DNA of 64,000 nt from an uncultured Nitrospiraceae bacterium (GCA_963705105.1 CAVPIW010000019.1:1-64000); one strand, 5' to 3'. Shown: positions 2,956 through 40,674, counted from the first letter of the stretch. Notes: generated by a model not told the origin, from the letters alone. A program made the numbers and translations.

Positions 2956-4606
2956 AGCTGATCTCCAGCCTCTCCGCCATCGCCCTGTCGTCCGTACTCA
3001 GACCGTCAGCCATGCCGATGGGCAGCTCCGTGCTCCGTCCCATGGGGGCGAAGATCTTCCTGAGCTCCACATCGGCGGCCTTGAATGTCTCGACGACACG
3101 CTCCGCCACCCTGTCGGGGTCGAGGCGCCGGTAGAGCCTGGGGTCCTGCGTCGTGATGCCCCGCGGGCACTTCCCGGTGTTGCAGAGGTTGCACCGGTTG
3201 TATTCGTCGCCGAAGCAGTCCGAGGCGGCCTGCATGATGTACTTGCCGATGGCGACGGCCGAGGCGCCGAGCATGATGAGCGCCGCCGCGTTTGCAGCGA
3301 GGTTTCCCTTCTTGCCGACGCCTCCCGCTGCGATGAGGGGAAGCTCGTTCTGCTTGCCCTGCTTCACCAGGTCCAGATAGCACTCCCGGATGTTCGACGC
3401 GATCGGGTGGCCCATCTTGTCCATCGAGACATTGTAGGCAGCGCCCGTCCCGCCGTCCTCGCCGTCGATGCAGAGGCCCGCGGCGTAAGGGTTCCTCGCC
3501 AGGTTGTTGAGCACGGCCCGGGCCGTCTTGGTCCCCGATATCTTCGGATAGACGGGCACCCTGAAGCCGAAGGCCATGGACATGGACTGGATCATCTTCG
3601 CCACCGACTCCTCGATGGAGTACTTCGTCTGGTGCGTCGGCGGCGACGCGAGGTCCACGAACTGCGGCACGCCGCGGATTTTGGCGATCAGCTTGAGCAC
3701 CTTCTGGGCCATGAGGAGACCGCCGTCTCCGGGCTTTGCGCCCTGGCCGTACTTGATCTCGATGGCAGCGGGGTCCTCGACCATATCGGGCAGGGCATGG
3801 ATGATCTCGTCCCAGCCGAAATAACCCGAGGCGATCTGGATGACGAAGTACTTGAGGTAGCGCGACCTGAGCAGGCGCGGCGGCATGCCCCCCTCGCCGG
3901 AGCACATGACGACGGGCATGTTTTCCACCTCGTTGAGGTATGCCACACCCATGGCGAGACCCTCCCACATGGGCGGGGAAAGGGCGCCGATGGACATGCT
4001 CCCGATCATGATCGGGAAGATCTCCCGGACGGGCGGGATGAAGCGGCCGTTGTCCCTGTTGATGACCAGACTCCCGTTGTCCGCGACAAGGGGCAGGTCT
4101 TCCGGCGGCAGGATCCTGCCAAGGAGTGTCCTGATCCGGAACTCATGGCGCCCCGCGTCGAGGGCCGGGTCCGTGAGCATGGATATGCGGGTGAACTTCA
4201 GGCGGTCGAGCGTCGAAGGCGATGGATCGTTCCTGCGCCCGCCGCGCCTGTACCCCTCTCCTCCCCTGTTTTTGTAATGGAGGAGCTTGTTCTGGAAGTT
4301 GTATTCCGGCTCGATGGCCTCGTTCGGGCAGACGAGGGTGCAGGTCCCGCAGCCGACGCAGTAGCGCTCCATGTCGGTCACCTGTTCCACGACCTGGACG
4401 ACCCGTCTCACCGCCTTCGGCGTCGGTACAGGTCCCTCGGAATGGACCGTCCGCATGAGCTTCACCGTCGGCTCGATGGCCTTGACAGGGCAGACGGCGG
4501 TGCACCGTCCGCACCGTTTGCACCGGTCGTCTCTCCACCGGACGATATAGGGGAACTCTTTGAATGTGAGCTGGTGATTGTGGTCTAACCGTGCAGCTGG
4601 TTCCAT
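2945..4606 (-). CDS. Glutamate synthase FMN-binding subunit (GltB domain 2) with N-terminal 2x[4Fe-4S]
   Basis: MSIGALS, SGEGG, QIASG, EIKYGQGAKPGDGG, DGEDGGTGAA and CNLCNTGKCPRGITTQ motifs; start moved to ATG 4606 behind GAGGAGG. Confidence 0.9.
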   Translation of the reverse strand: MEPAARLDHNHQLTFKEFPYIVRWRDDRCKRCGRCTAVCPVKAIEPTVKLMRTVHSEGPVPTPKAVRRVVQVVEQVTDMERYCVGCGTCTLVCPNEAIEPEYNFQNKLLHYKNRGGEGYRRGGRRNDPSPSTLDRLKFTRISMLTDPALDAGRHEFRIRTLLGRILPPEDLPLVADNGSLVINRDNGRFIPPVREIFPIMIGSMSIGALSPPMWEGLAMGVAYLNEVENMPVVMCSGEGGMPPRLLRSRYLKYFVIQIASGYFGWDEIIHALPDMVEDPAAIEIKYGQGAKPGDGGLLMAQKVLKLIAKIRGVPQFVDLASPPTHQTKYSIEESVAKMIQSMSMAFGFRVPVYPKISGTKTARAVLNNLARNPYAAGLCIDGEDGGTGAAYNVSMDKMGHPIASNIRECYLDLVKQGKQNELPLIAAGGVGKKGNLAANAAALIMLGASAVAIGKYIMQAASDCFGDEYNRCNLCNTGKCPRGITTQDPRLYRRLDPDRVAERVVETFKAADVELRKIFAPMGRSTELPIGMADGLSTDDRAMAERLEISYAC

Positions 4607-5694
4607 ACCTGTACCTCCTCCGCCTGGGGCGACACGATGACCATGTCGTATTTCATGGGGAATATGTCCGTCGCGCGGTCGCGGTCCGGCAGGACCCGGT
4701 CCACGCCGCACTCTTCGGACATCAGCGCGTACTTGCCTTTCGCACCACCCACGATGCCGGGCCTCAGCTTTTTCGCATCGTGCACCATGAAGCAGGTCCC
4801 GTCAGGAGTGAAGCCGATGACGAGATTGGGACCGTCGATGCAGAGGGGCCTCAGGGAGTGTTTCATGAGCCTGAGCGCCTCGTGGTCATCCCTCCGCTCC
4901 AGCTCCCCGTCCTGGAGCGGCGTGATGACGTCCTTGTAGTATGTCAGGGGATAGCCGAGCTGCCGCGACGTGTAGTGCAGAATGTGGGTGAAGACCTCGC
5001 TGTCGCTGTTGTACCCGATGTAGCCGGGAAAGCCCCTGCCCGTGAGGAACTCCCGGATGGGCACGAAGGCCGTGTTCTCGCCGTTCGTCATGGAGCAGAA
5101 GCCCTGGATGAAGAAGGGGTGGCAGGCATACAGGTAAATGGCGTAGTTCGTGTTCTGCCTGCCCTGGGCGAAAATGATCTTCGCCTTCACGTCATCGCGG
5201 TCGAGGCCGAAAAACTCGCCCAACTGAAGGGGGTCGCCGACCTCTTTCAGGGTGATGACGTCGGGGTAAAAGGAGAAGGCGAAGAGCGACTCGTCCGTCT
5301 CTCCGAGCCTCCTCAGGGCGATGCGCGTGTTCATGAGGAGGTCTTCCTTGTCGTGTTTCGATTTGTATTTGATGGAGTCGGGGTAATCGTAGACCCTCGC
5401 GAAATAATACTCCCGCGGCGCCACCCCCCTGACCTTCTTTATCTTCGGCGCCCAGACATGGAGGAGCTTGAACCCGAGCTTGTCCATGTATTCGTCGATC
5501 GTCCAGGCGCCCTTCTTGGAACAGATGCCGGACAATATGGGGTATTCCTTGAGGTCCTCGAACTCCCCGTCCAGGTCTTTCATGGTGATCCCGAGACCGC
5601 TCCCGTCGTGACCCTCCCTCATCGTCTCGAGGGCGTGGATCGGTTCCATCGGGGACACATACGTACTCGATGTTACAGCCGCCAGTCTGCACAT
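4585..5694 (-). CDS. Class II glutamine amidotransferase (GltB domain 1-like)
   Basis: N-terminal MCRL nucleophile Cys, GHDGSG, RQNTN, HPF, NGE and SDSE motifs; first gene of the operon. Confidence 0.88.
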   Translation of the reverse strand: MCRLAAVTSSTYVSPMEPIHALETMREGHDGSGLGITMKDLDGEFEDLKEYPILSGICSKKGAWTIDEYMDKLGFKLLHVWAPKIKKVRGVAPREYYFARVYDYPDSIKYKSKHDKEDLLMNTRIALRRLGETDESLFAFSFYPDVITLKEVGDPLQLGEFFGLDRDDVKAKIIFAQGRQNTNYAIYLYACHPFFIQGFCSMTNGENTAFVPIREFLTGRGFPGYIGYNSDSEVFTHILHYTSRQLGYPLTYYKDVITPLQDGELERRDDHEALRLMKHSLRPLCIDGPNLVIGFTPDGTCFMVHDAKKLRPGIVGGAKGKYALMSEECGVDRVLPDRDRATDIFPMKYDMVIVSPQAEEVQVWNQLHG

Positions 5695-28006: not shown

Positions 28007-29330
<1,324 letters not shown>

Positions 29331-29359
29331 ATGTACCATAATGTTACCTTATGGGGCGG

Positions 29360-29387
29360 AAAAATGAGGGAGGCCCGGGCCTCCCTC
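29360..29387 (-). terminator. Hairpin terminator after the FMN glutamate-synthase-family gene
   Basis: GAGGGAGG-CCCGGG-CCTCCCTC followed by ATTTTT on the minus strand. Confidence 0.6.
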
Positions 29388-29410
29388 CGCAACACGCAGA
29401 AACGAATGTA

Positions 29411-30997
29411 TTAGCTGAAGAGTATCCTCTCGGCCTCTTCCATGTCGGACTCCATGACATAGGGAATACCCGTCACATCCGCAGCCTCCCTGGTGAGGGA
29501 GACGAGGTCGTTCCTCTCGAGGTACTTGAGGGCGAACTTCCTCTCGCCTGCCATCAGCTGCTGGAGACCCAGCTTCAGCCTGTCGCAGAAGGTGTACATC
29601 GCGACGGCGCCGAGGGGGATCTTGTCGAAATCCTTGCCGAACCTGTTCTTCAGGGTCTCATAGGAGATGAATATCCTCTCCGCAACGTCGCCGTGCTTCT
29701 TGATCTCGGCGGGGAGCTTCTCCTCGTCGATCCACTTCTGGATGTTCTTGCCGACGAAAGCGGGGATCATGAGGGCCCTTCCCATGCAGACGGCCTTGAA
29801 GAAAGGCGCGCCGAGCGCGAGGGCCTTGAAGAGGTGATCTTCAAGGGAGAAGCCGCCGGCAATGGCGAGATCGGGGACGTACTTCCCTTTTGCCTTGAGC
29901 TGGGAGGCATACTTGTATGCGAGTGCCTGGAGGTAGATCGTCGGGATGCCCCATTCGTTCATCATCCTCCAGGGGCTCATGCCCGTCCCGCCGCCGGCGC
30001 CGTCGATCGTGAGCATGTCCACCTGCGCATCGGAGCAATACCGCATCGCCCTGGCGAGGTCGGAGACCCTGTACGCGCCCGTTTTCAGTGAGACGAACTT
30101 GGCGCCAACCTTCCTATAATACTCGACGGCCTTCGCGAAGCCATCAGGGTCAACCATGCCGAGCCTTGAATGACGCTCGAACTCCTTGAACTCCTCCTCG
30201 CCGAATGCCTTCTGGACGATGGGATCCGTCGGGTCGGGCAGGACGATATAACCCCTGTTCTTCAATTCCTGCGCCTTCTCCATCTTCTTGACCTTCACTT
30301 CTCCGCCGATGTCCTTGGCTCCCTGGCCCCACTTGAGCTCGATGCATTCGACGCCAAGCTTCTCAACAGCGTATTCAGCAGATCCGAGCTTGGTGTCTTC
30401 CACGTTCTGCTGGAGGATGATCTCGCCGAAACCCTCATCCCAATCCTTGAAGCCCTTGATGCGCCTTTCGAGTTCGGGCGACTTCACGACCCTGCCCTTC
30501 TTGAACTGGGCGTTCATGTCCATGCCGACGACGTTCTCGCCGATGACGACGATGATGCCCGAGATGGCGGCTCCGATGGCGAGACCGTCCCAGTTATCGC
30601 GGGCGATATCCGTCGAGCCCAGGGCGCCGGTGAACACAGGCAGGCTCATCTTGATCTTCTTGCCCTTGCCGCTATTGCCGCCGAGGGTGACCTCCGTCGA
30701 AACGGCGGGGAAGATGGCCTTGTCGGGGTCGGCCTCGATGCCGACGGCGCCGACGCACGTGCCCTGGATATTGATGTGCGAGTAATCGACGGGATACTTC
30801 TTCGTCGCTCCTGCCGTCACCTTGCCGAAAGGCATCGGGTAGATGACTTCCCTGCCCCTGTATGACGACTTCCCTATCTCGCACGGACCCGGGCAGCCGT
30901 CGAGGCAGACCGAACAAATACCGGAATAGGGCGCGGGATCGGGAACCCTGTTCCGCGTACCCGTAGCTGAACTTGCGTTTGGCTGACCTTGCTTCAT
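29411..30997 (-). CDS. Stand-alone FMN-binding glutamate-synthase-family protein
   Basis: N-terminal CxxCxxxCxGxC; ELKWGQGAKDIGGE, LKTG, IDGAGGGTG and IAGG motifs; no C-terminal 3Fe-4S cysteines seen. Confidence 0.85.
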   Translation of the reverse strand: MKQGQPNASSATGTRNRVPDPAPYSGICSVCLDGCPGPCEIGKSSYRGREVIYPMPFGKVTAGATKKYPVDYSHINIQGTCVGAVGIEADPDKAIFPAVSTEVTLGGNSGKGKKIKMSLPVFTGALGSTDIARDNWDGLAIGAAISGIIVVIGENVVGMDMNAQFKKGRVVKSPELERRIKGFKDWDEGFGEIILQQNVEDTKLGSAEYAVEKLGVECIELKWGQGAKDIGGEVKVKKMEKAQELKNRGYIVLPDPTDPIVQKAFGEEEFKEFERHSRLGMVDPDGFAKAVEYYRKVGAKFVSLKTGAYRVSDLARAMRYCSDAQVDMLTIDGAGGGTGMSPWRMMNEWGIPTIYLQALAYKYASQLKAKGKYVPDLAIAGGFSLEDHLFKALALGAPFFKAVCMGRALMIPAFVGKNIQKWIDEEKLPAEIKKHGDVAERIFISYETLKNRFGKDFDKIPLGAVAMYTFCDRLKLGLQQLMAGERKFALKYLERNDLVSLTREAADVTGIPYVMESDMEEAERILFS

Positions 30998-31124
30998 GGA
31001 AGACCTCCGTTTAATGATTAGTTATTTTTCGGGCCATAATTTTCAGTATTTATAACCCTAGGAGGCAAAAAAATACCGATGATATCTCCTCGCCCCCGCT
31101 TATTTTCCGTCTAATACTCCCGTT

Positions 31125-32414
31125 TCACACCAGTCCTGCCGTTCTTTCCCACATGACAAGAATTTCCGTCTCCTCCTCCCCATCGTTCTTCCAGCGCGCC
31201 GGAAAGGTGTCCCTCACAAAGAGCCCGTCTCCCTGGCTGAGATATTCCGTTTTGGCCTCCAGTGTCACCTCCGCGGCGCCCTTTACGACATAGAGGAACT
31301 GCGGCGACGTGTGATAGAGGAAGTGCCTGCCCAGGTCCGCCCCGGGTGGAATGACGGCGAGGCTGACGGAGAGGGTACCGGAGTTGAGAATCGGGAAGAC
31401 CCTGACCCCGTCTTCAAGCGCAGGGGGCTTCGACAAGACTTTGTCCCTTGGGAAAAGCCACGGCGCCGTCTCTTCCCTGCTTCCCTCCAGGAAATCCCCC
31501 GGCTTGACGGCCACGGCGGCGCACAGCTGGAGGAATGAGCTCAGGGACGGGCTGATCTGATTGTTTTCGAGCTGAGAGATGAAACTCGGTGTCAGCCCGA
31601 CCTTGACGGCGAGCTCCTTCTGGCTCATGCCCCGCCTCGTCCTCATCTCCCTGAGCCTGCCGCCGATATCGGTGGCGGGCTCCCGCTTCTGGGACGTGAT
31701 GGTCGCCATATCTTGCGTGATCTCGTACAGGTGGGGCTTGAAGGCCTCGCGGTCCTGTCGTCCCGAGAGTTTCAACGCCTTGATGAAGAGCTTTTCCTTT
31801 CTCTTGTAGAGATCGATGACGACCTGCGTGATGTGCCGCAGATTGGCCTTGAAATTCTGGCTATGAGCGTCCTTGTCCAAAATCCAGTAGGCGACGGTAT
31901 CGAGATCGAAAAGCCTCGGGCACATGTACGTGAAAAACTTGTATGTGCTGTTCTCGTCACCCCAGAGGTCCTGCATCCCCGTGAGGCTGTCGAGGACATA
32001 CCGTGTGCCTGCGGGGACATCGTCCTCGATGGATGTGAGGATGCGGGTGAACTCTTCGATGTTCTTCGGGTCGTTGACGCGGATCGTCCTGACGTTTCTC
32101 TCCCTTTCGTAATACTTCAGGAACGTCGGATCGTTCTTTCCCTTGCCCGACGTGAAGCAGTCGATGAGGATGAAGTATTCCGGTGTCAGGTACGGCGCGA
32201 TCTCGTTGATGATGCTCTGAGGCGACCTGTTGAAGCTGACGTAGATGACTTTCTGGGATTCGCTGTTGGACTGGCGGACGAAATTCTTGACGAATATGTC
32301 GTAGGCCGTCCCCGAGTCCACCTCCCATACGACATTATCGCCGATATGGAGTGAGTCGATAAGACTGTCGAGCGATGGTATTCCTGATGAAATATTAGCC
32401 ACGGTAAACGGCAA
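31125..32414 (-). CDS. KaiC/RAD55-like domain + XRE HTH + cupin regulator
   Basis: ISSGIPSLDSLI, VIYVSF, VLDSL (RecA/KaiC-like); IGGRLREMR..GMSQKELA..VGLTPSFISQLENNQISPS; C-terminal cupin. Confidence 0.8.
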   Translation of the reverse strand: MPFTVANISSGIPSLDSLIDSLHIGDNVVWEVDSGTAYDIFVKNFVRQSNSESQKVIYVSFNRSPQSIINEIAPYLTPEYFILIDCFTSGKGKNDPTFLKYYERERNVRTIRVNDPKNIEEFTRILTSIEDDVPAGTRYVLDSLTGMQDLWGDENSTYKFFTYMCPRLFDLDTVAYWILDKDAHSQNFKANLRHITQVVIDLYKRKEKLFIKALKLSGRQDREAFKPHLYEITQDMATITSQKREPATDIGGRLREMRTRRGMSQKELAVKVGLTPSFISQLENNQISPSLSSFLQLCAAVAVKPGDFLEGSREETAPWLFPRDKVLSKPPALEDGVRVFPILNSGTLSVSLAVIPPGADLGRHFLYHTSPQFLYVVKGAAEVTLEAKTEYLSQGDGLFVRDTFPARWKNDGEEETEILVMWERTAGLV

Positions 32415-32458
32415 CCTACTGTTAAGTACTTCAACTATAAATGAGTGCCCCTTCCTTT

Positions 32459-32513: not shown

Positions 32514-32620
32514 TTGACAAAGTTGTCGCCTTGCCTTTACTATGGAGTAGGAATTATTGTCACTCGGCAATCGGTTACCGTCGGCGTCTATCCCTCCGTC
32601 TGGGCATAGACGCTCTTTTA
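32514..32620 (+). promoter_or_regulatory. Sigma70-type promoter plus leader ending in a terminator hairpin (candidate attenuator)
   Basis: TTGACA-N18-TACTAT, then GCGTCTATCCC...GGGCATAGACGC-TCTTTT about 50 nt before the mvhD ATG; resembles 5766-5879. Confidence 0.65.
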
Positions 32621-32668: not shown

Positions 32669-33106
32669 ATGGACCAACGAAGCGCCGGACTCAACCTCTC
32701 CATCTTTTTTTGCCAGCAACTGGACCCGGATCAGGATGTCAACAGGCGGGCCCTTGAAAAAGAACTCGGCAAACGCATCAGGTTCTTCCCCCTGCCCTGC
32801 AGCGGCCGGATCGATCCCCTCCACCTCATGCGTGCCCTCGAATCGGGGGCGGACAAGGTCTATCTCGTCACCTGTCCCGAAGGGGCTTGCCAATACCGCG
32901 AGGGAAACATCAGGGCGCGGAAACGTGTCGCCCATACGCAGACATTGATCGAAGAGATAGGGCTTGAGAGGGACCGCATCGAGCTGATCCTGTCACCGCC
33001 GGGCCCCGTCGCTACGGTTGATGAACTGGCGAGGGGACTCCTGGCCCGGGAGGCGACGGTCGGGGCATCTCCGGTGAGGGACAGGGAGACAGTAGGTAAT
33101 AGATAG
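32669..33106 (+). CDS. mvhD: MvhD/FlpD-family [2Fe-2S] protein
   Basis: FFC, PCSGRID...RALESGAD.V....C..GACQY.EGN motif; start moved to ATG 32669. Confidence 0.85.
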   Translation: MDQRSAGLNLSIFFCQQLDPDQDVNRRALEKELGKRIRFFPLPCSGRIDPLHLMRALESGADKVYLVTCPEGACQYREGNIRARKRVAHTQTLIEEIGLERDRIELILSPPGPVATVDELARGLLAREATVGASPVRDRETVGNR

Positions 33107-33159
33107 TAGTCAATAGTCAGCAAGGAAAATTTCGTACTGGATATAAAAGGAGTGTGGGC

Positions 33160-33828
33160 ATGATTACAGCAGAAAGAAAACCTTTGGAGGAAATCAGGGA
33201 GATGCTGGCGCCGTACAATAAGATCCTGGTGGCCGGTTGCGGCTCCTGCGTGGCCGAGTGCGCCTCAGGCGGAGAGAAGGAGGTGGGACTCCTCGCCTCG
33301 GCGCTCCGCATGGATGCAAAGATGTCCGGCAAAGACCCGGTCATTGACGAAATAACGCTGGACCGCCAGTGCGTCTATGAATTCATCGACGAACTGACAG
33401 GTCTTGTCGACCGTTACGACGTCGTCCTGTCCCTCGGGTGCGGCGCCGGTGTGCAGGCCGTGGCGGAGGTCTTCCCGAAAGTCCCCATCGTTCCCGCCCT
33501 CAACACGACTTTTATAGGGCAAACGAAGGAAGCGGGCCTGTGGATCGAAAACTGCAGGGGCTGCGGCGACTGCAAGCTCGGCTTTTTCGCAGCCGTCTGC
33601 CCCGTCACCCGCTGCGCAAAGGGACTCTTCAACGGCCCCTGCGGAGGGTCCCAATCCGGTCTCTGCGAGGTCGACCCGGACGTGCCCTGCGCGTGGCAGC
33701 TGATCGTGACGAGACTGGAAGACACGGGCCGCCTTGGCCTCCTCAGGGCGGTTCATCCGCCTGCTGACTGGTCGAAGCAGCAGGGGAAGGGACCGAGGAA
33801 AATCTACAGGGAGGATCAGAGAGCGTGA
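33160..33828 (+). CDS. metV: MetV (methylene-THF reductase Fe-S partner subunit)
   Basis: GCGSC...C, RQC, GCGAGVQ, CRGCGDC...CPVTRCAKGLFNGPCGG...CEV...CAW; overlaps the metF start. Confidence 0.88.
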   Translation: MITAERKPLEEIREMLAPYNKILVAGCGSCVAECASGGEKEVGLLASALRMDAKMSGKDPVIDEITLDRQCVYEFIDELTGLVDRYDVVLSLGCGAGVQAVAEVFPKVPIVPALNTTFIGQTKEAGLWIENCRGCGDCKLGFFAAVCPVTRCAKGLFNGPCGGSQSGLCEVDPDVPCAWQLIVTRLEDTGRLGLLRAVHPPADWSKQQGKGPRKIYREDQRA

Positions 33829-34748
33829 AGACAGGAAGCCGGCTCAAGGAAGTGCTGCAGAAGGGAGAGTTTGCCGTTACCGCCGAATGCGGTCCGCCCA
33901 AGGGGGCCGACCCGGAGGTGGTGAAGAACAAGGGAAAAATCCTCAGGGAATACACCGACAGCGTGAACGTCACGGACAACCAGACAGGCGTGGTCCGTCT
34001 CTCCAGCCTTGCCGCCTGTGCCTTGCTGAGGCAGGAGGGGATCGACCCGGTGCTCCAGATGGTCACCCGTGACCGCAACCGCATCGCGCTCCAGTCGGAC
34101 ATCCTGGGCGCCTCCGCCCTCGGCATACGCAATATCCTCTGTCTCTCCGGCGATCACCAGTGCTTCGGCAACCAGCCCCAGGCAAAGGGCGTCTTCGACA
34201 TCGACTCCATCCAGTTGATCCAGGCAGTCCGGCACATGAGAGACGCCGGTGAGATCATCGGGGGAGAGAAACTGACGGAGCCGCCAGACCTCTTCATCGG
34301 GGCGGCGGCAAATCCCTTTGCCGACCCGTTCAAATACCGCGCCGCCCGCCTTGCCGTCAAGGCCGACGCAGGCGCGGAGTTCATCCAGACACAGTGCATC
34401 TACAACCTCGGCCGCTTCAGGGAATGGATGGACCTCGTGAAGGACTACGGCGTCCTCGACAGGGTCTTCATCCTCGGCGGGGTGACTCCCCTCAAGTCGG
34501 CAAAAATGGCCGAATACATGAGCCGGAATGTCGCAGGCATGGATATCCCCGACGACGTTATCGCCAGGATGAAGTCCGTGCCTCCGAAGGAACAGCGCCG
34601 TGAAGGCATCAGGATCGCCGTGGAGACGATACAGGCCCTCCGTGAGATGGACGGCGTCCGAGGCGTTCATATCATGGCAATCGAATGGGAAGAGATCGTC
34701 CCGCAGATCGTGGAAGAGTCGAAGCTCTTCCCGAGACCGCAGGTCTGA
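33825..34748 (+). CDS. metF: Methylenetetrahydrofolate reductase
   Basis: VTAECGPPKG, NVTDN, RDRNRIALQSD, LSGD and FIQTQ motifs. Confidence 0.92.
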   Translation: MKTGSRLKEVLQKGEFAVTAECGPPKGADPEVVKNKGKILREYTDSVNVTDNQTGVVRLSSLAACALLRQEGIDPVLQMVTRDRNRIALQSDILGASALGIRNILCLSGDHQCFGNQPQAKGVFDIDSIQLIQAVRHMRDAGEIIGGEKLTEPPDLFIGAAANPFADPFKYRAARLAVKADAGAEFIQTQCIYNLGRFREWMDLVKDYGVLDRVFILGGVTPLKSAKMAEYMSRNVAGMDIPDDVIARMKSVPPKEQRREGIRIAVETIQALREMDGVRGVHIMAIEWEEIVPQIVEESKLFPRPQV

Positions 34749-34761
34749 GAGGAGGACCGGT

Positions 34762-36141
34762 ATGCCCCCGAAATATCATATCAAGAGCGAAAAAACGCCG
34801 AACCACTTTCAGGCGATCACCCGGTCCGGCGTCATCGCCTGGGAGGAGGGGTGCCTGAAGTGCGCCCGGTGCGTGAAAAAGGATTGCGTCTACCAGGTCT
34901 ACCACAAGCGGGGCATCGATGCCCGGCAGATGATCGAGTCCCTTGACAGCGTCTGCATGGACTGTTTCCGCTGTGTCCAGGGCTGTCCGAACAGGCTCAT
35001 CCAGAAGGGACTCAATCCATCCTACAAGGTCCTCGGGGACCATTACTGGACGCCGGAGATCATCAGCAATCTCTGGTACCAGGCGGAATCGGGCCGCATA
35101 CCCGTCTCAGGCGCCGGCTACGGTGGCCCTTTTTCGGGAGCGGGCTTCGACGCCATGTGGACGGACATGTCCGAAATCGTCCGCCCCACACGGGACGGCA
35201 TCCATGGCCGTGAATACATCAGCACCACCGTCGACGTGGGAAGGAAGCCATCCTTCCTCGAGTTCGACAGCAACGGCGCCCTGGCGCACACTCCGCCGCC
35301 CCTCGTCGAGCTGCCCCTGCCTATCCTCTTTGACGTCCTGCCCTGGTCGCCGCCGCGGAGGGGGATCCATCCCGCCTTCCTCGAAGGAGCGAGGTCGACA
35401 GGGACCATGACCGTCATCCGCCAGGGGGAATTCGGTCCTTCCATGGATGAGTACCTTCCCTACATCGTTCTGTATGCCGACGAGGATGTCTCCGCCGTCC
35501 ACCCGTCCGTCATCGCCCGGCTGCGCATGGTGGAGATACCGGACGGGGACAGTGTCATGACGGCGCAGCGAACGCTGAAGGAGATGAACCCCGGCCTGGT
35601 GGTCCTTGTGAGGATATCCCTCGATCCCTCATCGGCCGAGAGGGTCTGCAGGCTTGTCGGAGAGGGCGCTGAAGCCGTCCATCTCGTTGCCGACGAGTTC
35701 GGCAATGAGATGGCGGAGAAACCTCTCTTTATCAAGGAAAGGATGCGCAAGATCCACCTCCGCCTCGTCGAGGAGGGGGTGCGGGACCGGGTCACCCTCA
35801 TTGCCGGAGGCGGCATCGCCATGGCGGAGCACGTGGCGAAGCTCATCATCTGCGGGGCGGACCTCGTGTCCGTGGACATCCCGCTCCTCGTCGCGATGGA
35901 ATGCCGCGTCTGCAGGCGCTGCAGGGAGGGCATCGACTGTCCCGTGGAACTGGAAAGCGTCGACCCCCGGTGGGGCTCGGCCCGCATCCGGAACCTCATG
36001 GCCGGCTGGCACAGCCAACTCCTCGAGATCCTCGGGGCGATGGGCATCCGTGAAGTGCGCAGGATTAGGGGAGAAATGGGCCGCGCCATGTTCTTCGAGG
36101 ACCTCGAGAGGGACATGTTCGCCACTTTGGGTCGAAGGTGA
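34762..36141 (+). CDS. Degenerate glutamate synthase FMN-domain paralogue with ferredoxin-type clusters
   Basis: CLKCARC, CMDCFRCVQGCP, GFD, RDRVTLIAGGG, GAD and ECRVCRRC...CP retained; GEGG and QGAKPG motifs absent; ATG behind GAGGAGG. Confidence 0.75.
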   Translation: MPPKYHIKSEKTPNHFQAITRSGVIAWEEGCLKCARCVKKDCVYQVYHKRGIDARQMIESLDSVCMDCFRCVQGCPNRLIQKGLNPSYKVLGDHYWTPEIISNLWYQAESGRIPVSGAGYGGPFSGAGFDAMWTDMSEIVRPTRDGIHGREYISTTVDVGRKPSFLEFDSNGALAHTPPPLVELPLPILFDVLPWSPPRRGIHPAFLEGARSTGTMTVIRQGEFGPSMDEYLPYIVLYADEDVSAVHPSVIARLRMVEIPDGDSVMTAQRTLKEMNPGLVVLVRISLDPSSAERVCRLVGEGAEAVHLVADEFGNEMAEKPLFIKERMRKIHLRLVEEGVRDRVTLIAGGGIAMAEHVAKLIICGADLVSVDIPLLVAMECRVCRRCREGIDCPVELESVDPRWGSARIRNLMAGWHSQLLEILGAMGIREVRRIRGEMGRAMFFEDLERDMFATLGRR

Positions 36142-36151
36142 CCGGGGATAT

Positions 36152-36197
36152 GCAAGGCTTTGAGGCGCTTCGCACCGCCTGTGTATGCAACGACAGG
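36152..36197 (+). mobile_element. Right-arm fragment of the MITE-like family inside the operon
   Basis: GCAAGGCTTTGAGGCGCTTCGCACCGCCTGTGTATGCAAC. Confidence 0.75.
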
Positions 36198-36253
36198 ACG
36201 AATTTTTCTTTGCGCTCTTTGCGACTTTGCGTGAGACAAGATGAGGTGATACA

Positions 36254-37774
36254 GTGACGACACTATATGAGACATTGGATTTGCCGGCGGTGAGGCCGGC
36301 GCCGAGCCGTTTCCGCAACGCCCTCGGCAGATACCGCATCTCCGTGAGCAAGGCCTGCACGAACTGCGGGCTCTGCGTGGAGCTCTGCCCGTACGGCGTG
36401 TACCAGGCGGGCGCGAAAAGACCGAAAGTCGCCGCGGAGCACTTCTGCATCGGCTTTCCCTGCAGCGAAAAGGACTTCCACTGCGTGCGGAGATGTCCCG
36501 AAGGGGCCATCGACCTCCGCCTCAACCCGTCCTTCGAGATCCTCGGGGACAGGCGGTGGCCGGCGGACCTGCTCGCCGCCACCTGGCATATGGCCGAGAC
36601 GGGAGAGATCCCGCACCAGGGACTGAATTACAAAACGGGGGATTCCGGCGGCGGCTTCGACAAGCTCCGGTTCATCTTTCCCCGGGAGCAGGGGCCCGAC
36701 ATCACCGAAGAGGACATATCGACAGCCATCGAGCTGAACCGCTCGGGAGACTCGAGGCCCGGCATTTCGATCCCCGTTCCCTTCTATCTCGGCGGCATGT
36801 CCTTCGGCTCCGTCAGCATCGTCACCATGCTCTCCCGCGTCAGGGCGGCGGCGGCCCTCAAGACCTTCTGCTGCACCGGCGAGGGCGGGTACCCCGAGGA
36901 GCTCATCCCCTATGATGACTATATCATCACGCAGGTGGCGACGGGGCTCTTCGGCGTCAGGGAAGAGACGATCAAGCGCGTCCGGATCGTGGAGTTTAAA
37001 TATGCCCAGGGGGCGAAACCGGGCCTCGGCGGACATCTCCTCGGCGACAAGGTGACGCCCCGTGTGGCCCGTATGCGCGAGGCCGTCGCGGGCAACGCCC
37101 TCTTCTCTCCCTTCCCGTTCCACAGCGTTTATTCCGTGGAAGACCACAAGAAGCACGTGGACTGGATCAAGGAGACGAACCCCCGCACCCTCGTGTCGGT
37201 GAAGGTCTCGACGCCGACGGACGTAGACATGGTGGCCGTGGGGAGTTACTTCGCCGGCGCGCACATCGTCCAGCTCGACGGGAGCTACGGGGGCACGGGC
37301 GCGGCGCCTGACATCGCCAAGAAGAACATCGCCATGCCCGTTGAGTACGCCATCCCGAAGGTGCACAAGTTCCTCAGCGAAGAGGGCATCCGGGACAAGA
37401 TAACCATAATCGCCAGCGGCGGGATACGGTCCGCCTATGACATGGCGAAGGCCATCGCCCTGGGCGCCGACGGCGTCTGCCTCGGCACGGCCGATCTCGT
37501 CGCCCTCGAATGCATCCGCTGCCACCACTGCGAATCGGGCAGGGGCTGCGCGCGGGGCATCGCCACGACGGACGAGGAACTGACGCACCTCATGGACCTC
37601 GAATGGGCAACGCAGCGGATCATCAATATGTACATGAGCTGGCGGCGCCAGCTCGTCGGCATCCTCAGGCGGCTGGGCATGAGGAGCGTCACCGAGCTCG
37701 TGGGCCGCTTCGACGTGATCGGGCACCTCGATTACATCAGTCAGGACGACATCGAGGGGGAACTGGAACTATGA
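36254..37774 (+). CDS. Glutamate synthase FMN-binding subunit (GltB domain 2) with N-terminal Fe-S
   Basis: MSFGSVS, TGEGG, QVATGLFGV, EFKYAQGAKPGLGGHL, DGSYGGTGAAP and CIRCHHCESGRGCARGIAT motifs. Confidence 0.92.
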   Translation: MTTLYETLDLPAVRPAPSRFRNALGRYRISVSKACTNCGLCVELCPYGVYQAGAKRPKVAAEHFCIGFPCSEKDFHCVRRCPEGAIDLRLNPSFEILGDRRWPADLLAATWHMAETGEIPHQGLNYKTGDSGGGFDKLRFIFPREQGPDITEEDISTAIELNRSGDSRPGISIPVPFYLGGMSFGSVSIVTMLSRVRAAAALKTFCCTGEGGYPEELIPYDDYIITQVATGLFGVREETIKRVRIVEFKYAQGAKPGLGGHLLGDKVTPRVARMREAVAGNALFSPFPFHSVYSVEDHKKHVDWIKETNPRTLVSVKVSTPTDVDMVAVGSYFAGAHIVQLDGSYGGTGAAPDIAKKNIAMPVEYAIPKVHKFLSEEGIRDKITIIASGGIRSAYDMAKAIALGADGVCLGTADLVALECIRCHHCESGRGCARGIATTDEELTHLMDLEWATQRIINMYMSWRRQLVGILRRLGMRSVTELVGRFDVIGHLDYISQDDIEGELEL

Positions 37775-37793
37775 CAAACAGCGGGGGTTCACG

Positions 37794-40445
37794 ATGAAAG
37801 GGCAAAGCAGAGCAGACGCGATTATCGCTTCGCGGCATCATTTCCGCGAGGCCGAGAGACTGGTGCACAGATCCGGCATGGAGGTCGAGGAAGGCGGATG
37901 CGGGGTCACGGGGTTCGCGTGCAGCATCCCCGTGAGCGGCCGCCACATCTTCGAGCCCTCCGTGCAGATGCACAACAGGGGAAACGGCAAGGGAGGCGGT
38001 CTTGCGGCCGTCGGGCTCAGGCCTGAGCAGCTCGGGGTAGACAGGGAGACCCTCGACAATGATTTCCTCCTGCAGGTGGCGCTCATCGATGAGACAGTCC
38101 TGCCCGAGATGGAGTCCCGCTTCATCCGCCCTCACTTCCGCGTTGCCCACGAGGCCTTCGTCGAGACCGTCGACGACTACCGCGACATCCCCGGACTCGA
38201 GGTGAAACCGCCGGCAGTGAAACGCTATTTCGTGCGGGCCACGCCGGAGGCCCTGGACCGGTTCGCAAAGGATCGCGGACTCGAAAGCCTGCCCGCAGAG
38301 AGGCTGGAAGAGGAGTTCATCTACCAGAACAGCTATCAGCTGAACCTCGCCCTCTACAGCTCCCTCGGCGACAAGAGGGCCTTCGTCCTGTCCCACGGCA
38401 GGAACATGATGATCCTGAAGATCGTCGGCTATGCCGAGATGGTCGCCCAGTATTACAAACTCGAGCACTTCGACGCCCACATCTGGATCGCCCACCAGCG
38501 CTATCCCACCAAGGGCCGCGTGTGGCACCCGGGCGGAGCGCACCCCTTCATCGGCCTCGACGAGGCCCTTGTGCACAACGGCGATTTTGCGAACTACTAT
38601 TCCGTCTCGGAATACCTGAAGCAGCGCAACATCTATCCGCTGTTTCTCACAGATACGGAAGTCTCCGTCCAGGTCTTCGACCTCCTGAACAGGGTCTGCG
38701 GGTATCCCCTGGAATACATTATCGAGGCACTCGCGCCGACGGGCGAGATGGATTTCGATCACCTGCCGGTGGAAAAGCAGCGCATCTACCGGCAGATCCA
38801 GGCGACGCACATCCACGGCTCACCGGACGGTCCCTGGTTCTTCATCATCGCGCGGAACCACCGCCGCAGAAAACAGTTCCAGCTCATCGGCATCACCGAT
38901 ACGGCGATGCTCCGGCCCCAGGTCTTCGCCATCCAGAAAGGAGAAGTGGAGATCGGGCTGATCTGTTCCGAGAAACAGGCTATCGACGCGACACTGGAGA
39001 GCCTCGCAAAGGAAGACCCCCGGTTCGGGACCGTGGCCGACCATTACTGGAATGCCCGGGGGGGCAGCTATACCGACGGCGGCGCCTTCATCTTCTCTAT
39101 CGGTGGGTCGGAGCCCGGAAAGATGTCCCTCACCTGCACGGACAAGTTCGGACGGCCCGTCGATGTCCCCACGGACCAGCCCCCTCTCGACGTCCGTGCG
39201 AAACTTCCTGTCGCGGCGACACCCTATGTGGACCACATGGCGGACATCATGCGCGGTCTCTCCGGCAATACGGTCGAGGAGCTCTTCAACGGCCTCAGGC
39301 GTGATATGGAGGAATGGGACTATGCACAGCTCCGTGCCTTCCTCAACCACCTCGTCGGCCTTGCGGACAAGGACAACCTGAAAGGTCCTGTGATCAGGCT
39401 CCTCACGCTTCTCCTGGACCGCCGCTACCCCACCGGCAACAAGAGACGCCGCTCCGTGCTCCAGATGGTCAGCGGCACCCTTGATCCAATATTCAGGGCA
39501 ATACCCCTGATCAACGATACGGGGACTGTCTCCTCGTTCCGGAGGATCGGCTTTGAAAGCCGCCATATCCTGAGCGGCCCGAGGGAAGGAGAACAGGTCC
39601 TTGTCGCCGATGCAGGACCTTTCCCGCCCGAAGGGGATGAATCGTTCGCACGCCTGATATCGAACGCCTACGACCTCGGCTGGAAGCGCTTCATCTGTTT
39701 CGGCCATCGCGGTCAGCGCTTCCTCGGCTGCGGTTTCGGACCGGACACGAGGGGAGTGCGCATCGACGCCTATGGCTCCAGCGGCGACTACCTCGCCTCC
39801 GGCGTCGACGGCATGGAGATCCACGTGCACGGCAATGCCCAGGACCAGCTCGGCCAGATCATGAAGGCAGGGAAACTCGTGGTGCACGGCGATGTGGGCC
39901 AGACCTTCATGTACGGCGCCAAGGGCGGTGAGGTCTTCGTGCTGGGGAACGCGGCGGGCCGCCCTCTCATCAACGCCGTGGGGAAACCGCGCGTCGTCAT
40001 CAACGGCACGGCCCTGGACTACCTGGCCGAATCGTTCATGGCAGGAGATCCTCACAACGGCGGAGGCTTCGTCATCCTCAACGGGATAACCTTCGACAGG
40101 GACGGCCGCGTCACGCCCCTTGAAATACCCTATCCCGGGTCGAACCTCTTCTCGCTCGCCTCGGGAGGCGCCATATTCGTCCGCGATCCCCGTCACAGCA
40201 TCGTGCCCGAACAGCTCAACGGCGGGCAGATCCTGCGCTTCACCAGGAAAGACTGGGCTTTGATACTGCCTTATCTGAAGGAGAATGAGCGACTCTTCGG
40301 CATCTCCGTCGATGCGCTGCTGACCGTCGACGGAGTGAAACGCAAACCGGAGGATGTCTACCGCACCATCGCCGCCGTCAAGCTCTCGGTCCTCTCGGCG
40401 AGCACGGCCCTTGCCATGAACGAGGAGTGGGTGGAGGCGGAATAG
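37794..40445 (+). CDS. Glutamate synthase GATase (domain 1) + GXGXG (domain 3) fusion
   Basis: EEGGCGVTG propeptide-like Cys, HQRYPT, AHPF, HNGD; C-terminal GQRFLGCG, GDVGQTFMYGAKGG repeats. Confidence 0.9.
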   Translation: MKGQSRADAIIASRHHFREAERLVHRSGMEVEEGGCGVTGFACSIPVSGRHIFEPSVQMHNRGNGKGGGLAAVGLRPEQLGVDRETLDNDFLLQVALIDETVLPEMESRFIRPHFRVAHEAFVETVDDYRDIPGLEVKPPAVKRYFVRATPEALDRFAKDRGLESLPAERLEEEFIYQNSYQLNLALYSSLGDKRAFVLSHGRNMMILKIVGYAEMVAQYYKLEHFDAHIWIAHQRYPTKGRVWHPGGAHPFIGLDEALVHNGDFANYYSVSEYLKQRNIYPLFLTDTEVSVQVFDLLNRVCGYPLEYIIEALAPTGEMDFDHLPVEKQRIYRQIQATHIHGSPDGPWFFIIARNHRRRKQFQLIGITDTAMLRPQVFAIQKGEVEIGLICSEKQAIDATLESLAKEDPRFGTVADHYWNARGGSYTDGGAFIFSIGGSEPGKMSLTCTDKFGRPVDVPTDQPPLDVRAKLPVAATPYVDHMADIMRGLSGNTVEELFNGLRRDMEEWDYAQLRAFLNHLVGLADKDNLKGPVIRLLTLLLDRRYPTGNKRRRSVLQMVSGTLDPIFRAIPLINDTGTVSSFRRIGFESRHILSGPREGEQVLVADAGPFPPEGDESFARLISNAYDLGWKRFICFGHRGQRFLGCGFGPDTRGVRIDAYGSSGDYLASGVDGMEIHVHGNAQDQLGQIMKAGKLVVHGDVGQTFMYGAKGGEVFVLGNAAGRPLINAVGKPRVVINGTALDYLAESFMAGDPHNGGGFVILNGITFDRDGRVTPLEIPYPGSNLFSLASGGAIFVRDPRHSIVPEQLNGGQILRFTRKDWALILPYLKENERLFGISVDALLTVDGVKRKPEDVYRTIAAVKLSVLSASTALAMNEEWVEAE

Positions 40446-40478
40446 CGAGGAACGATTTCCTTTTTCAGGAACAAACGG

Positions 40479-40512
40479 ACGGGGTCGGTGATTGCACCGG
40501 CCCCGTTTTTTT
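40479..40512 (+). terminator. Intrinsic terminator of the mvhD-metVF-gltB operon
   Basis: ACGGGGTCGGTG-ATTG-CACCGGCCCCGT followed by a T run. Confidence 0.85.
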
Positions 40513-40674
40513 CATCGTCGTGTACCACAAAAAAAATCCGGCAGACACGGGGCATAGAAGGATTAAAGGTTCCCTGTTATACCACCTTGGATCTCCTGAG
40601 GGCAGTATAAGCCTGATCGGCCGATTTCCGAGGGGCCGCTTTTCTCTTGTATCCCGATCTAGTATGATAAGAGT

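Follow-up and report, generated by a model that had tools for sequence, protein, structure and literature searches.

The stretch of DNA analysed here (the window, 64,000 nucleotides long) is derived from an uncultured Nitrospiraceae bacterium (GCA_963705105.1 CAVPIW010000019.1:1-64000) and it contains, on its + strand, an operon in which the genes for a divergent MvhD protein (MvhD'), MetV and MetF are joined to three genes related to those for glutamate synthase. The three glt genes very probably encode one GltB-type glutamate synthase, an enzyme by which nitrogen from ammonia is incorporated into amino acids, that is split among three chains, which would assemble as its subunits. This core is a real, widespread and uncharacterised variant of glutamate synthase that works like GltB and whose electron arm is swappable, and the operon is not a member of the GltBD, type IV methylenetetrahydrofolate reductase (MTHFR) or N-methylglutamate synthase systems. 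For the arm present in the window we propose, as a tentative reading that falls a little short of an even balance, that MetVF and MvhD' replace GltD and pass electrons from methyl-tetrahydrofolate (methyl-THF) to glutamate synthesis.

The gene order in this operon is mvhD-metV-metF-gltB2(degenerate)-gltB2-gltB1/3, and the six genes are intact open reading frames (ORFs) with a single stop each, the intergenic gaps being, in order, 53, -4, 13, 112, and 19 bp. They encode MvhD', an adaptor of the [2Fe-2S] type (145 amino acids (aa); 32669..33106; PF02662), the Fe-S subunit MetV (222 aa; 33160..33828; PF12225), a MetF with the methylene-THF reductase barrel (307 aa; 33825..34748; PF02219), a degenerate GltB2 recognised by profile search and a structure model (459 aa; 34762..36141), a catalytic GltB2 (506 aa; 36254..37774; PF01645, E 8e-90) and a GltB1-GltB3 fusion protein with GATase_6 and GXGXG domains (883 aa; 37794..40445). 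The 112-bp spacer between the two gltB2 genes (36142..36253) is occupied by two short interspersed repeats (36152-36197 and 36203-36239), hundreds of copies of which are present genome-wide, and the last gene is followed by an intrinsic terminator found in a hairpin scan (40477..40513, + strand), consisting of a 14-pair stem and a T-run. A preliminary description of this region had reported six co-oriented, closely spaced genes, including a degenerate gltB2, between a promoter or leader and a strong terminator. The ORFs, domains and gaps bear this out, as do the hairpin and a promoter-like site that is a match to consensus only. The description also stated that the operon lacks GltD, and in agreement with this a domain search detected no Pyr_redox/GltD domain in any of the six proteins.

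The gene-neighbourhood search which that description had suggested was based upon the 80 best GTDB matches out of 600 or more, and three of the 80 were dropped because of contig ends. The complete six-gene order was seen again in 27 of the 77 assessable loci, and hence it is not due to chance. In two soil metatranscriptome libraries, contigs were found that match portions of five of the genes (shares 0.12 and 0.07), and one of them extends from metF into the next gene (34523-34898), although such contigs cannot show transcription.

The probable split glutamate synthase core

The 883-aa chain comprises a predicted propeptide of 35 aa, an Ntn glutaminase starting at Cys36, a helical linker (residues ~455-600), and a GXGXG beta-helix, for which the PF01493 match is above the cut-off. 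C36 is unchanged in 57 aligned rows, as are R62, H234-Q-R, H261-N-G, and D287, which align to motifs of GlmS that we take to bind glutamine. An AlphaFold model of this chain (predicted local distance difference test (pLDDT) score 81) has 575 positions that superpose on GltB, within residues 1..1498 (Z 26.6, root-mean-square deviation 3.5), and its Cys36 coincides with residue 1 (Cys1) of 1ofe and 1ea0. Because the model superposes on both ends of GltB, the glutaminase and the beta-helix are placed as they are in GltB. The helical linker (window 39200-39600) gave no match in Pfam or the ESM Atlas.

The 506-aa chain consists of an N-terminal ferredoxin domain followed by a flavin mononucleotide (FMN)/2-oxoglutarate barrel. 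It retains the equivalents of E886, Q909, K931, Q934, K937, R957, E978, K999, T1030, and C1102/1108/1113 of the Azospirillum brasilense GltB, presumably the residues for binding of FMN, 2-oxoglutarate and the Fe-S cluster, and all of these are invariant in 63 rows. Of these, K937, R957, E978, K999, and T1030 align to K255, R275, E296, K317, and T348, whereas the three cysteines correspond to C420, C426, and C432. An additional cysteine, C423, is also invariant, which suggests a [4Fe-4S] cluster at this site.

The 459-aa chain is a full-length paralog of GltB2 (hhalign 100%), and the best structural match of its model (pLDDT 84) is the FMN domain of GltB (Z 26.5). It has lost the FMN and 2-oxoglutarate residues that the 506-aa chain retains, its barrel is without the 2-oxoglutarate loop, and a 44-residue segment (AQGAKPG...YSVED) and the GGTGA motif are missing. 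Two ferredoxin-type Cys motifs are present at its N-terminus, where eight cysteines are invariant in 76 rows, and a Cys cluster at its C-terminus. This chain is probably an electron-relay or scaffold subunit. It may also stand in for the central domain of GltB, one such domain giving a profile match of 52% with this chain vs 8% with the catalytic chain, in what is a weak test. A near-invariant motif, PVSGAGY...WTDMSEIVRPTRDGIHGREYI (residues 114-153), is poorly ordered in the single-chain model and is probably a subunit interface. Natural fusions are known in which the two GltB2 chains are joined, and in one case all three core chains form a single protein of 3016 aa.

The core thus shares with the GltB-type synthases (viz. 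the NADPH-dependent GltBD of A. brasilense, 1ea0, 2vdc, and 6s6s, and the ferredoxin-dependent GltS of Synechocystis, 1ofd, 1ofe, and 1llw) the Ntn glutaminase with its propeptide and Cys1, the residues of the FMN barrel, the cluster cysteines, and a beta-helix packed against the glutaminase. It differs from them in being divided among three chains, in the fusion of the glutaminase with the beta-helix, in a duplicated inactive barrel of the FMN type, in two extra ferredoxin domains, in the fourth Cys at the cluster site, in the absence of GltD, and in having MvhD', MetV, and MetF in its operon. A split GltB of the archaeal type with an input module of flavin and Fe-S proteins other than GltD has been proposed earlier, also from gene context, for the putative F420-dependent FGltS(I/II) (PMC3448663). 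Unlike FGltS, the present system has MetVF-MvhD' as its input module where FGltS has an FrhB-like protein, and it contains a pseudo-enzyme as an additional subunit; no Pfam or NCBIfam match to an FrhB/Fsr-N-like subunit was found in the six genes.

Distribution and neighbours of the core

The degenerate GltB2 was detected in 114 of 401 sampled genomes of the Desulfobacterota, the phylum of a Syntrophorhabdaceae genome (G041) in our set, and in 10 of 401 genomes from the phylum of the window, its own genome included. Of 30 relatives of the latter genome, a single one encodes the complete 883-aa protein, in an operon with an identical order of the six genes; this operon coincides with one of the 80 GTDB loci and should not be counted separately. 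No strong PF01645 match other than that of the operon was found in four of five genomes with the six-gene form and in five of five genomes in which a protein of the flavin adenine dinucleotide (FAD)-linked oxidase family forms the arm (see below), weaker stand-alone matches being present as well. In view of its presence in 114/401 Desulfobacterota genomes and of its being the only strong GltB in 9/10 genomes, the core may be the main route to glutamate in many anaerobes.

The neighbouring genes at the 80 loci include glnA (24 loci), amtB (11), a NifA-like activator (11), purF (11), carA (10), and carB (8). They bear upon an alternative raised in the preliminary description, namely that the GltB-like parts carry out C1-amine chemistry as in N-methylglutamate synthase. 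The MgsABC proteins contain the same three domain types, GltB1, GltB2, and GltB3, likewise with no GltD (PMC6237917), and a C1 enzyme is encoded within the present operon. However, of the 24 glutamine synthetases encoded nearby, 22 score above the cut-off for type I and two are partial, and none of the 24 reaches the cut-off for type III (GmaS-like; TIGR03105). Additionally, no sarcosine-oxidase-like cluster was present among the 15 recurrent neighbour clusters that were typed, nor was mgdABCD, for which no direct search was made. The Mgs subunits, of about 300, 225, and 442 aa, are encoded with gmaS and mgdABCD (PMC6237917), whereas the neighbours here are type I glnA, amtB, and PII genes, and the subunit sizes and Fe-S contents also differ. 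Together with the operon being the only strong source of GltB in nine of the ten genomes tested, these results lend the alternative no support and we consider it extremely unlikely.

The MvhD', MetV, and MetF proteins

The operon resembles the type IV MetVF-HdrCBA-MvhD system of Moorella thermoacetica (PMC8760232; PMC8515935) in its mvhD-metV-metF order, in the MetV motif, and in the catalytic residues of MetF, which branches from the MetF proteins that are linked to Hdr. In contrast to the type IV enzymes, hdrABC is absent from the operon, its MvhD is divergent, and glutamate synthase genes are found in the place of Hdr. Neither the five MTHFR groups distinguished in PMC8515935 nor the four types of PMC8760232 include one with a glutamate synthase as partner.

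Four cysteines of MvhD' (C15, C44, C69, and C74) are invariant in 78 rows, and MvhD' forms a branch separate from that of the canonical MvhD (FastTree support 95), although a hidden Markov model (HMM) for MvhD' failed to separate the two. The AADLAG helix was observed in only 1 of 90 core-linked MvhD' proteins, in contrast to 32 of 33 MvhD proteins from other MetF loci, and MvhD' also lacks the C-terminal motif that the HdrA-adjacent MvhD retains. The loss of both features fits the loss of an interface with HdrA.

MetV, whose gene lies directly 5' of metF with a 4-bp overlap, carries Fe-S cysteines and the NGPCGG motif described for MetV in PMC8515935. Residues E21 and D110 of MetF align to Glu18 and Asp109 of the Thermus protein, this Glu and Asp being the catalytic residues according to PMC3156243. 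Within the six-gene form, E21, D110, and Q190 are retained in 27/27 MetF proteins and also in 39/39 of a second set, the genomes of which are partly shared. The catalytic Asp is likewise present in 36/36 other MetF proteins, but in only 2 of 26 from a ten-gene form of the locus described below, and the latter MetF may be a non-folate flavoprotein.

These residues are relevant to the possibility that MetF serves the synthase as an NAD(P)H diaphorase and not as a folate enzyme. In its favour, replacement of this Asp by Asn in the Escherichia coli MetF curtails the half-reaction with folate but not that with NADH (PMC3156243), and this is the residue that the ten-gene MetF has lost. However, the Asp is kept in the MetF studied here, and the characterised MetF of the MetVF type does not use NAD(P)H (PMC8515935; PMC8760232), so that a diaphorase is very unlikely.

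The association of this MetF with the core was also examined in the reverse direction, using the best 80 MetF matches from metagenomes. Of the 18 matches of at least 66% identity, 17 had the core behind metF, the 18th being cut by a contig end, whereas below 66% identity this was the case in 0 of 49 loci, a further 13 being too short. In our MetF trees, which are quick trees, the six-gene MetF proteins formed one main branch nested among the Hdr-linked MetF, together with a second origin. A single clade of six-gene MetF was rejected by the approximately unbiased (AU) test (p 5e-5; 15 vs 20 rows), which was run after the first tree had been seen. From these trees, MetF joined the core at least twice. 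At 22 six-gene loci the distances of MetF and of MvhD' were correlated with those of the core with r values of 0.70-0.78 and 0.88-0.91, respectively, but such correlations are high for every pair of subunits and they cannot show contact. The nearest relatives of both MetF and MvhD' are in records from Nitrospirota, Syntrophus, and Syntrophorhabdaceae.

Variation in the genes preceding the core

A gene for MvhD' was located 5' of the core in all 77 assessable loci, while the accompanying genes varied: mvhD'-metV-metF was found in 27, mvhD'-metF in 27, mvhD' alone in 13, mvhD'-metV in nine, and another set in one. A wider sample of 70 loci, made up of the 30 top-ranking ones of the 114 genomes and 40 hand-picked from lower ranks, contained metV-metF at 33 (and one partial), mvhD' alone at 22, mvhD'-metV at five, an FAD-oxidase-family gene at four, mvhD'-metF at two, and a double-mvhD form at two, with one locus being cut. 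All seven loci fetched from the phylum of the window are of the six-gene type, and four of them are then followed by a canonical three-gene synthase. Where this synthase comes immediately after the operon, as in several relatives, the two are kept together. The 12 loci fetched from Chloroflexota, where only two candidates per genome were scored, comprise a bare core in seven, an FAD arm in two (one of them fused), mvhD'-metV-metF in two, and mvhD'-metF in one. In the bare-core Chloroflexota loci (L295-L301) the catalytic GltB2 has a reduced length, four of these proteins being of 429-462 aa, and apparently has no ferredoxin domain. Two loci (L359 and L364) have the order mvhD-metV-metF-mvhD', and at these and at L355 the MetF-like protein adjoining the core has lost further catalytic residues. 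In sets of five genomes each, which include kin, metF is present elsewhere in 5/5 of those with mvhD' only and in 5/5 of those with mvhD'-metV.

The mvhD'-metF loci are distinguished by what follows the core. Among the 56 loci whose sequence continues for 1 kb or more beyond the core, hdr genes were found 3' of it in 20 of 20 mvhD'-metF loci and in 0 of 22 six-gene loci. The ten-gene order mvhD'-metF-core-hdrC-hdrB-long hdrA-mvhD-metV was confirmed in five of five loci checked, and its long HdrA has a GltD-like insert (16 proteins, 27-33% identity). Examples of this form (L058, L073, L074, L097, and L100) have an HdrA of 1430 aa, and the MetF of this type is without the catalytic Asp in 24/26 cases. 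Based upon this form it could be suggested that the core is connected by MvhD', together with MetV, to an HdrA complex encoded either in cis, as in the ten-gene operon, or in trans, as with the Hdr set on contig C5 of the present genome (see below). HdrA would then oxidise NADH in a bifurcation for which the synthase serves as the acceptor at high potential, and MetF would be an alternative branch or a spacer. The hdr genes at every assessable mvhD'-metF locus, the mostly Asp-less MetF of the ten-gene form, and the nesting of the six-gene MetF among Hdr-linked MetF are all in accord with this suggestion. It is at variance with the absence of hdr genes after the core at the 22 assessable six-gene GTDB loci, with the loss from MvhD' of the AADLAG helix and the C-terminal motif, and with the presence in the ten-gene form of a second, canonical MvhD for HdrA. 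On balance we regard it as quite unlikely.

A different replacement of the arm was observed in 4/70 loci of the wider sample and in 2/12 loci from Chloroflexota, where an FAD/Fe-S protein adjoins the core or is fused to it. This protein, a member of the FAD-linked oxidase family that also has a ferredoxin domain, is encoded next to the degenerate GltB2 or as a fusion with it (L290:8089-11679, L291:8229-10073, and L378-L381; P0258, P0271, and P0390), and a full-length MetV is missing from four of five genomes with such an arm, a small set that likewise includes kin. The best relative of the FAD protein among solved structures is LctD (E 4e-22). However, the FAD protein scores below the GlcD cut-off and the metal-binding motif is absent in the alignment, and its identification as a lactate dehydrogenase was rejected.

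A proposed electron route to glutamate

GltD is a relay of flavin and Fe-S centres for a two-electron donor, and both MetF-MetV-MvhD' and the FAD/Fe-S protein share its layout and occupy the same gene slot. The fusion of the FAD protein to the N-terminus of the 459-aa chain points to this chain as the place of electron entry. In the mechanism that we propose, the 883-aa chain, its propeptide removed, would hydrolyse glutamine at Cys36, and the 506-aa chain would make 2-iminoglutarate and reduce it at FMN. The 459-aa pseudo-enzyme would act as a scaffold and as the Fe-S wire for entry, perhaps in place of the central domain of GltB. MetF would oxidise methyl-THF to methylene-THF, the electrons passing through MetV and the [2Fe-2S] cluster of MvhD' to the ferredoxin domains of both GltB2 chains and finally to FMN. 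The gene content, folds, conserved catalytic residues, synteny, and nitrogen context are observed, and from there on the assembly of the subunits, the docking of MetVF, this path and its direction are what we infer. The net reaction would be methyl-THF + Gln + 2-oxoglutarate -> methylene-THF + 2 Glu, with NAD(P)H and ferredoxin spared. With a methylene/methyl-THF couple of -200 mV (PMC8515935), and with values assumed for the glutamate couple and for glutamine hydrolysis, it was computed at -26 to -30 kJ/mol.

The genome of the window, which is 99% complete, has two further systems, neither of which the preliminary description had mentioned. One is a canonical three-gene glutamate synthase within the window (586..5694, - strand), consisting of a GATase, an Fe-S/FMN GltB2, and a GltB3-GltD fusion with its GltD domain at 586-2955, which is separate from the operon. 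The other is a second set, hdrC-hdrB-hdrA(1008 aa)-mvhD-metV-metF, on contig C5 (131739-138561, - strand), which adjoins a cooC-like gene, folE, and folD and carries MvhD, MetV, and MetF paralogs distinct from those of the operon. A nif cluster lies ~10-20 kb from this set. As both are present, neither textbook job needs the operon; it is an extra route, probably acquired, and we suppose horizontally by a Nitrospirota host. MetH (PF02574) and MetE (PF01717) were not found in this genome, whereas AcsB is present in it and in five of five six-gene genomes, a count that had no control group and in which related genomes are not independent. A pterin-binding protein near AcsB is read as AcsE.

The preliminary description had already suggested MetF-MetV-MvhD as the electron arm of this synthase. 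Its suggestion withstands the synteny check and is strengthened by the synteny in 17/18 loci, by the recruitment of MetF on at least two occasions and by the FAD protein in the same slot; MetVF is, however, optional in cis. The description had also regarded its idea as endangered if MetVF paired with Hdr genes elsewhere while the synthase was fully active with ferredoxin alone, and half of this, the pairing of a MetVF paralog with Hdr, is what contig C5 shows.

Several other observations weigh against a folate-fed synthase. MetVF is not in cis at 22 of the 70 loci of the wider sample, and metF is not at five more, and with the bare core of 7/12 Chloroflexota loci this indicates that the core can work without this arm. 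The ten-gene MetF looks, from its sequence, unable to activate folate, and its lack of the Asp (24/26), together with the long HdrA with the GltD-like insert, means that folate chemistry is not family-wide. One six-gene locus (L164) is then followed by hdrC-hdrB, and an enzyme of the GltD type is already present in the genome of the window. The potentials of ferredoxin-type clusters usually lie below -200 mV, and clusters of this kind would make for an uphill electron step. Lastly, the purified MetFV of Clostridium ljungdahlii takes electrons directly from ferredoxin (PMC8515935).

The last of these points, with the frequent occurrence of the bare core or of the core with mvhD' alone, also favours a different arrangement. 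The core with MvhD' would be a synthase dependent upon ferredoxin or flavodoxin, and the co-transcribed MetVF would not feed it but would reduce methylene-THF from the same low-potential donor, either as a passenger or as an offshoot of an Fe-S hub used in common. Both GltB2 chains have ferredoxin domains of their own, and at the 22 six-gene loci the MetF distances follow the core less closely than do those of MvhD'. Such an arrangement leaves unexplained that MetVF joined the core at least twice, that it intervenes between mvhD' and the core in an operon with control of the nitrogen type, that a second MetVF is present where an Hdr-linked one exists and MetH/MetE are undetected, and that an FAD/Fe-S protein occurs in the same slot. 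We think it unlikely.

If the transfer of electrons from methyl-THF through MetVF-MvhD' is correct, a folate-bound methyl group would be a new class of donor for glutamate synthase and would link the Wood-Ljungdahl pathway directly to ammonia assimilation, and the synthase would be a new class of partner for MetVF enzymes, whose physiological redox partners are described as an open question in PMC8760232. No description of a pairing of MetVF with glutamate synthase was found in a full-text literature search that covered only a minority of the subscription journals. Being compact, the six-gene unit lends itself to expression and assay. It is also conceivable, though rather unlikely, that the two MetVF sets form a methylene/methyl-THF redox shuttle, in which methylene-THF is reduced with NADH by HdrCBA-MvhD-MetVF, with concomitant bifurcation of electrons to a low-potential carrier, and methyl-THF is re-oxidised by the operon complex in making glutamate. 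Energy from the strongly favourable synthesis of glutamate would in this way be captured and not dissipated as it normally is, and the glutamate synthases would make up a family whose donor arm (a folate enzyme, an FAD oxidase or Hdr) can be exchanged. For sulfate reducers that oxidise acetate, the operon complex would offer a direct outlet for the electrons from the oxidation of methyl-THF, which are difficult to use.

Promoter, leader, and divergent genes

A sigma70-like promoter candidate (TTGACA, 18 nt, TACTAT) is present at 32514..32543 (+ strand) as a consensus match only, the promoter scan giving 4 matches vs 3.5 in shuffles, i.e., no excess. An imperfect palindrome of 14 bp (GGYAA-N4-YWRCC) lies on either side of it, one copy (32403..32416) over the start of a divergent gene for a KaiC-XRE-cupin protein and the other (32566..32579) just 3' of the promoter candidate. 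Of its four matches in the window two are in this region between the divergent promoters, and there are 52 in the genome. The palindrome is a candidate operator, and the KaiC-XRE-cupin protein a candidate for binding it. No copy of it was found to precede the other nitrogen genes of the genome, and hence it does not mark a genome-wide regulon. No match within one mismatch to the canonical NrpR box, GGAA-N6-TTCC, was found in the promoter region. The leader contains a hairpin followed by a short U-run (32583..32619, + strand; z -2.9), resembling an attenuator or terminator, and had no match in Rfam. Twin hairpins of the ANTAR type, identified by their pattern, were seen in 8 of 76 leaders vs 0 in shuffles, but not in the leader of this operon.

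Upstream of the operon, ORF calls and domain searches revealed a divergent nitrogen cluster (28007..32414, - strand), which includes a PII gene (28007-28348), nrpR (28308-29339), a stand-alone GltB2-like flavoprotein of 528 aa beside nrpR (29411-30997), and a regulator in which KaiC/RecA-like, XRE, and cupin domains are fused (31125-32414). The 528-aa flavoprotein recurs near such operons, and the KaiC-XRE-cupin regulator recurs adjoining them, longer forms of 770-930 aa also being observed.

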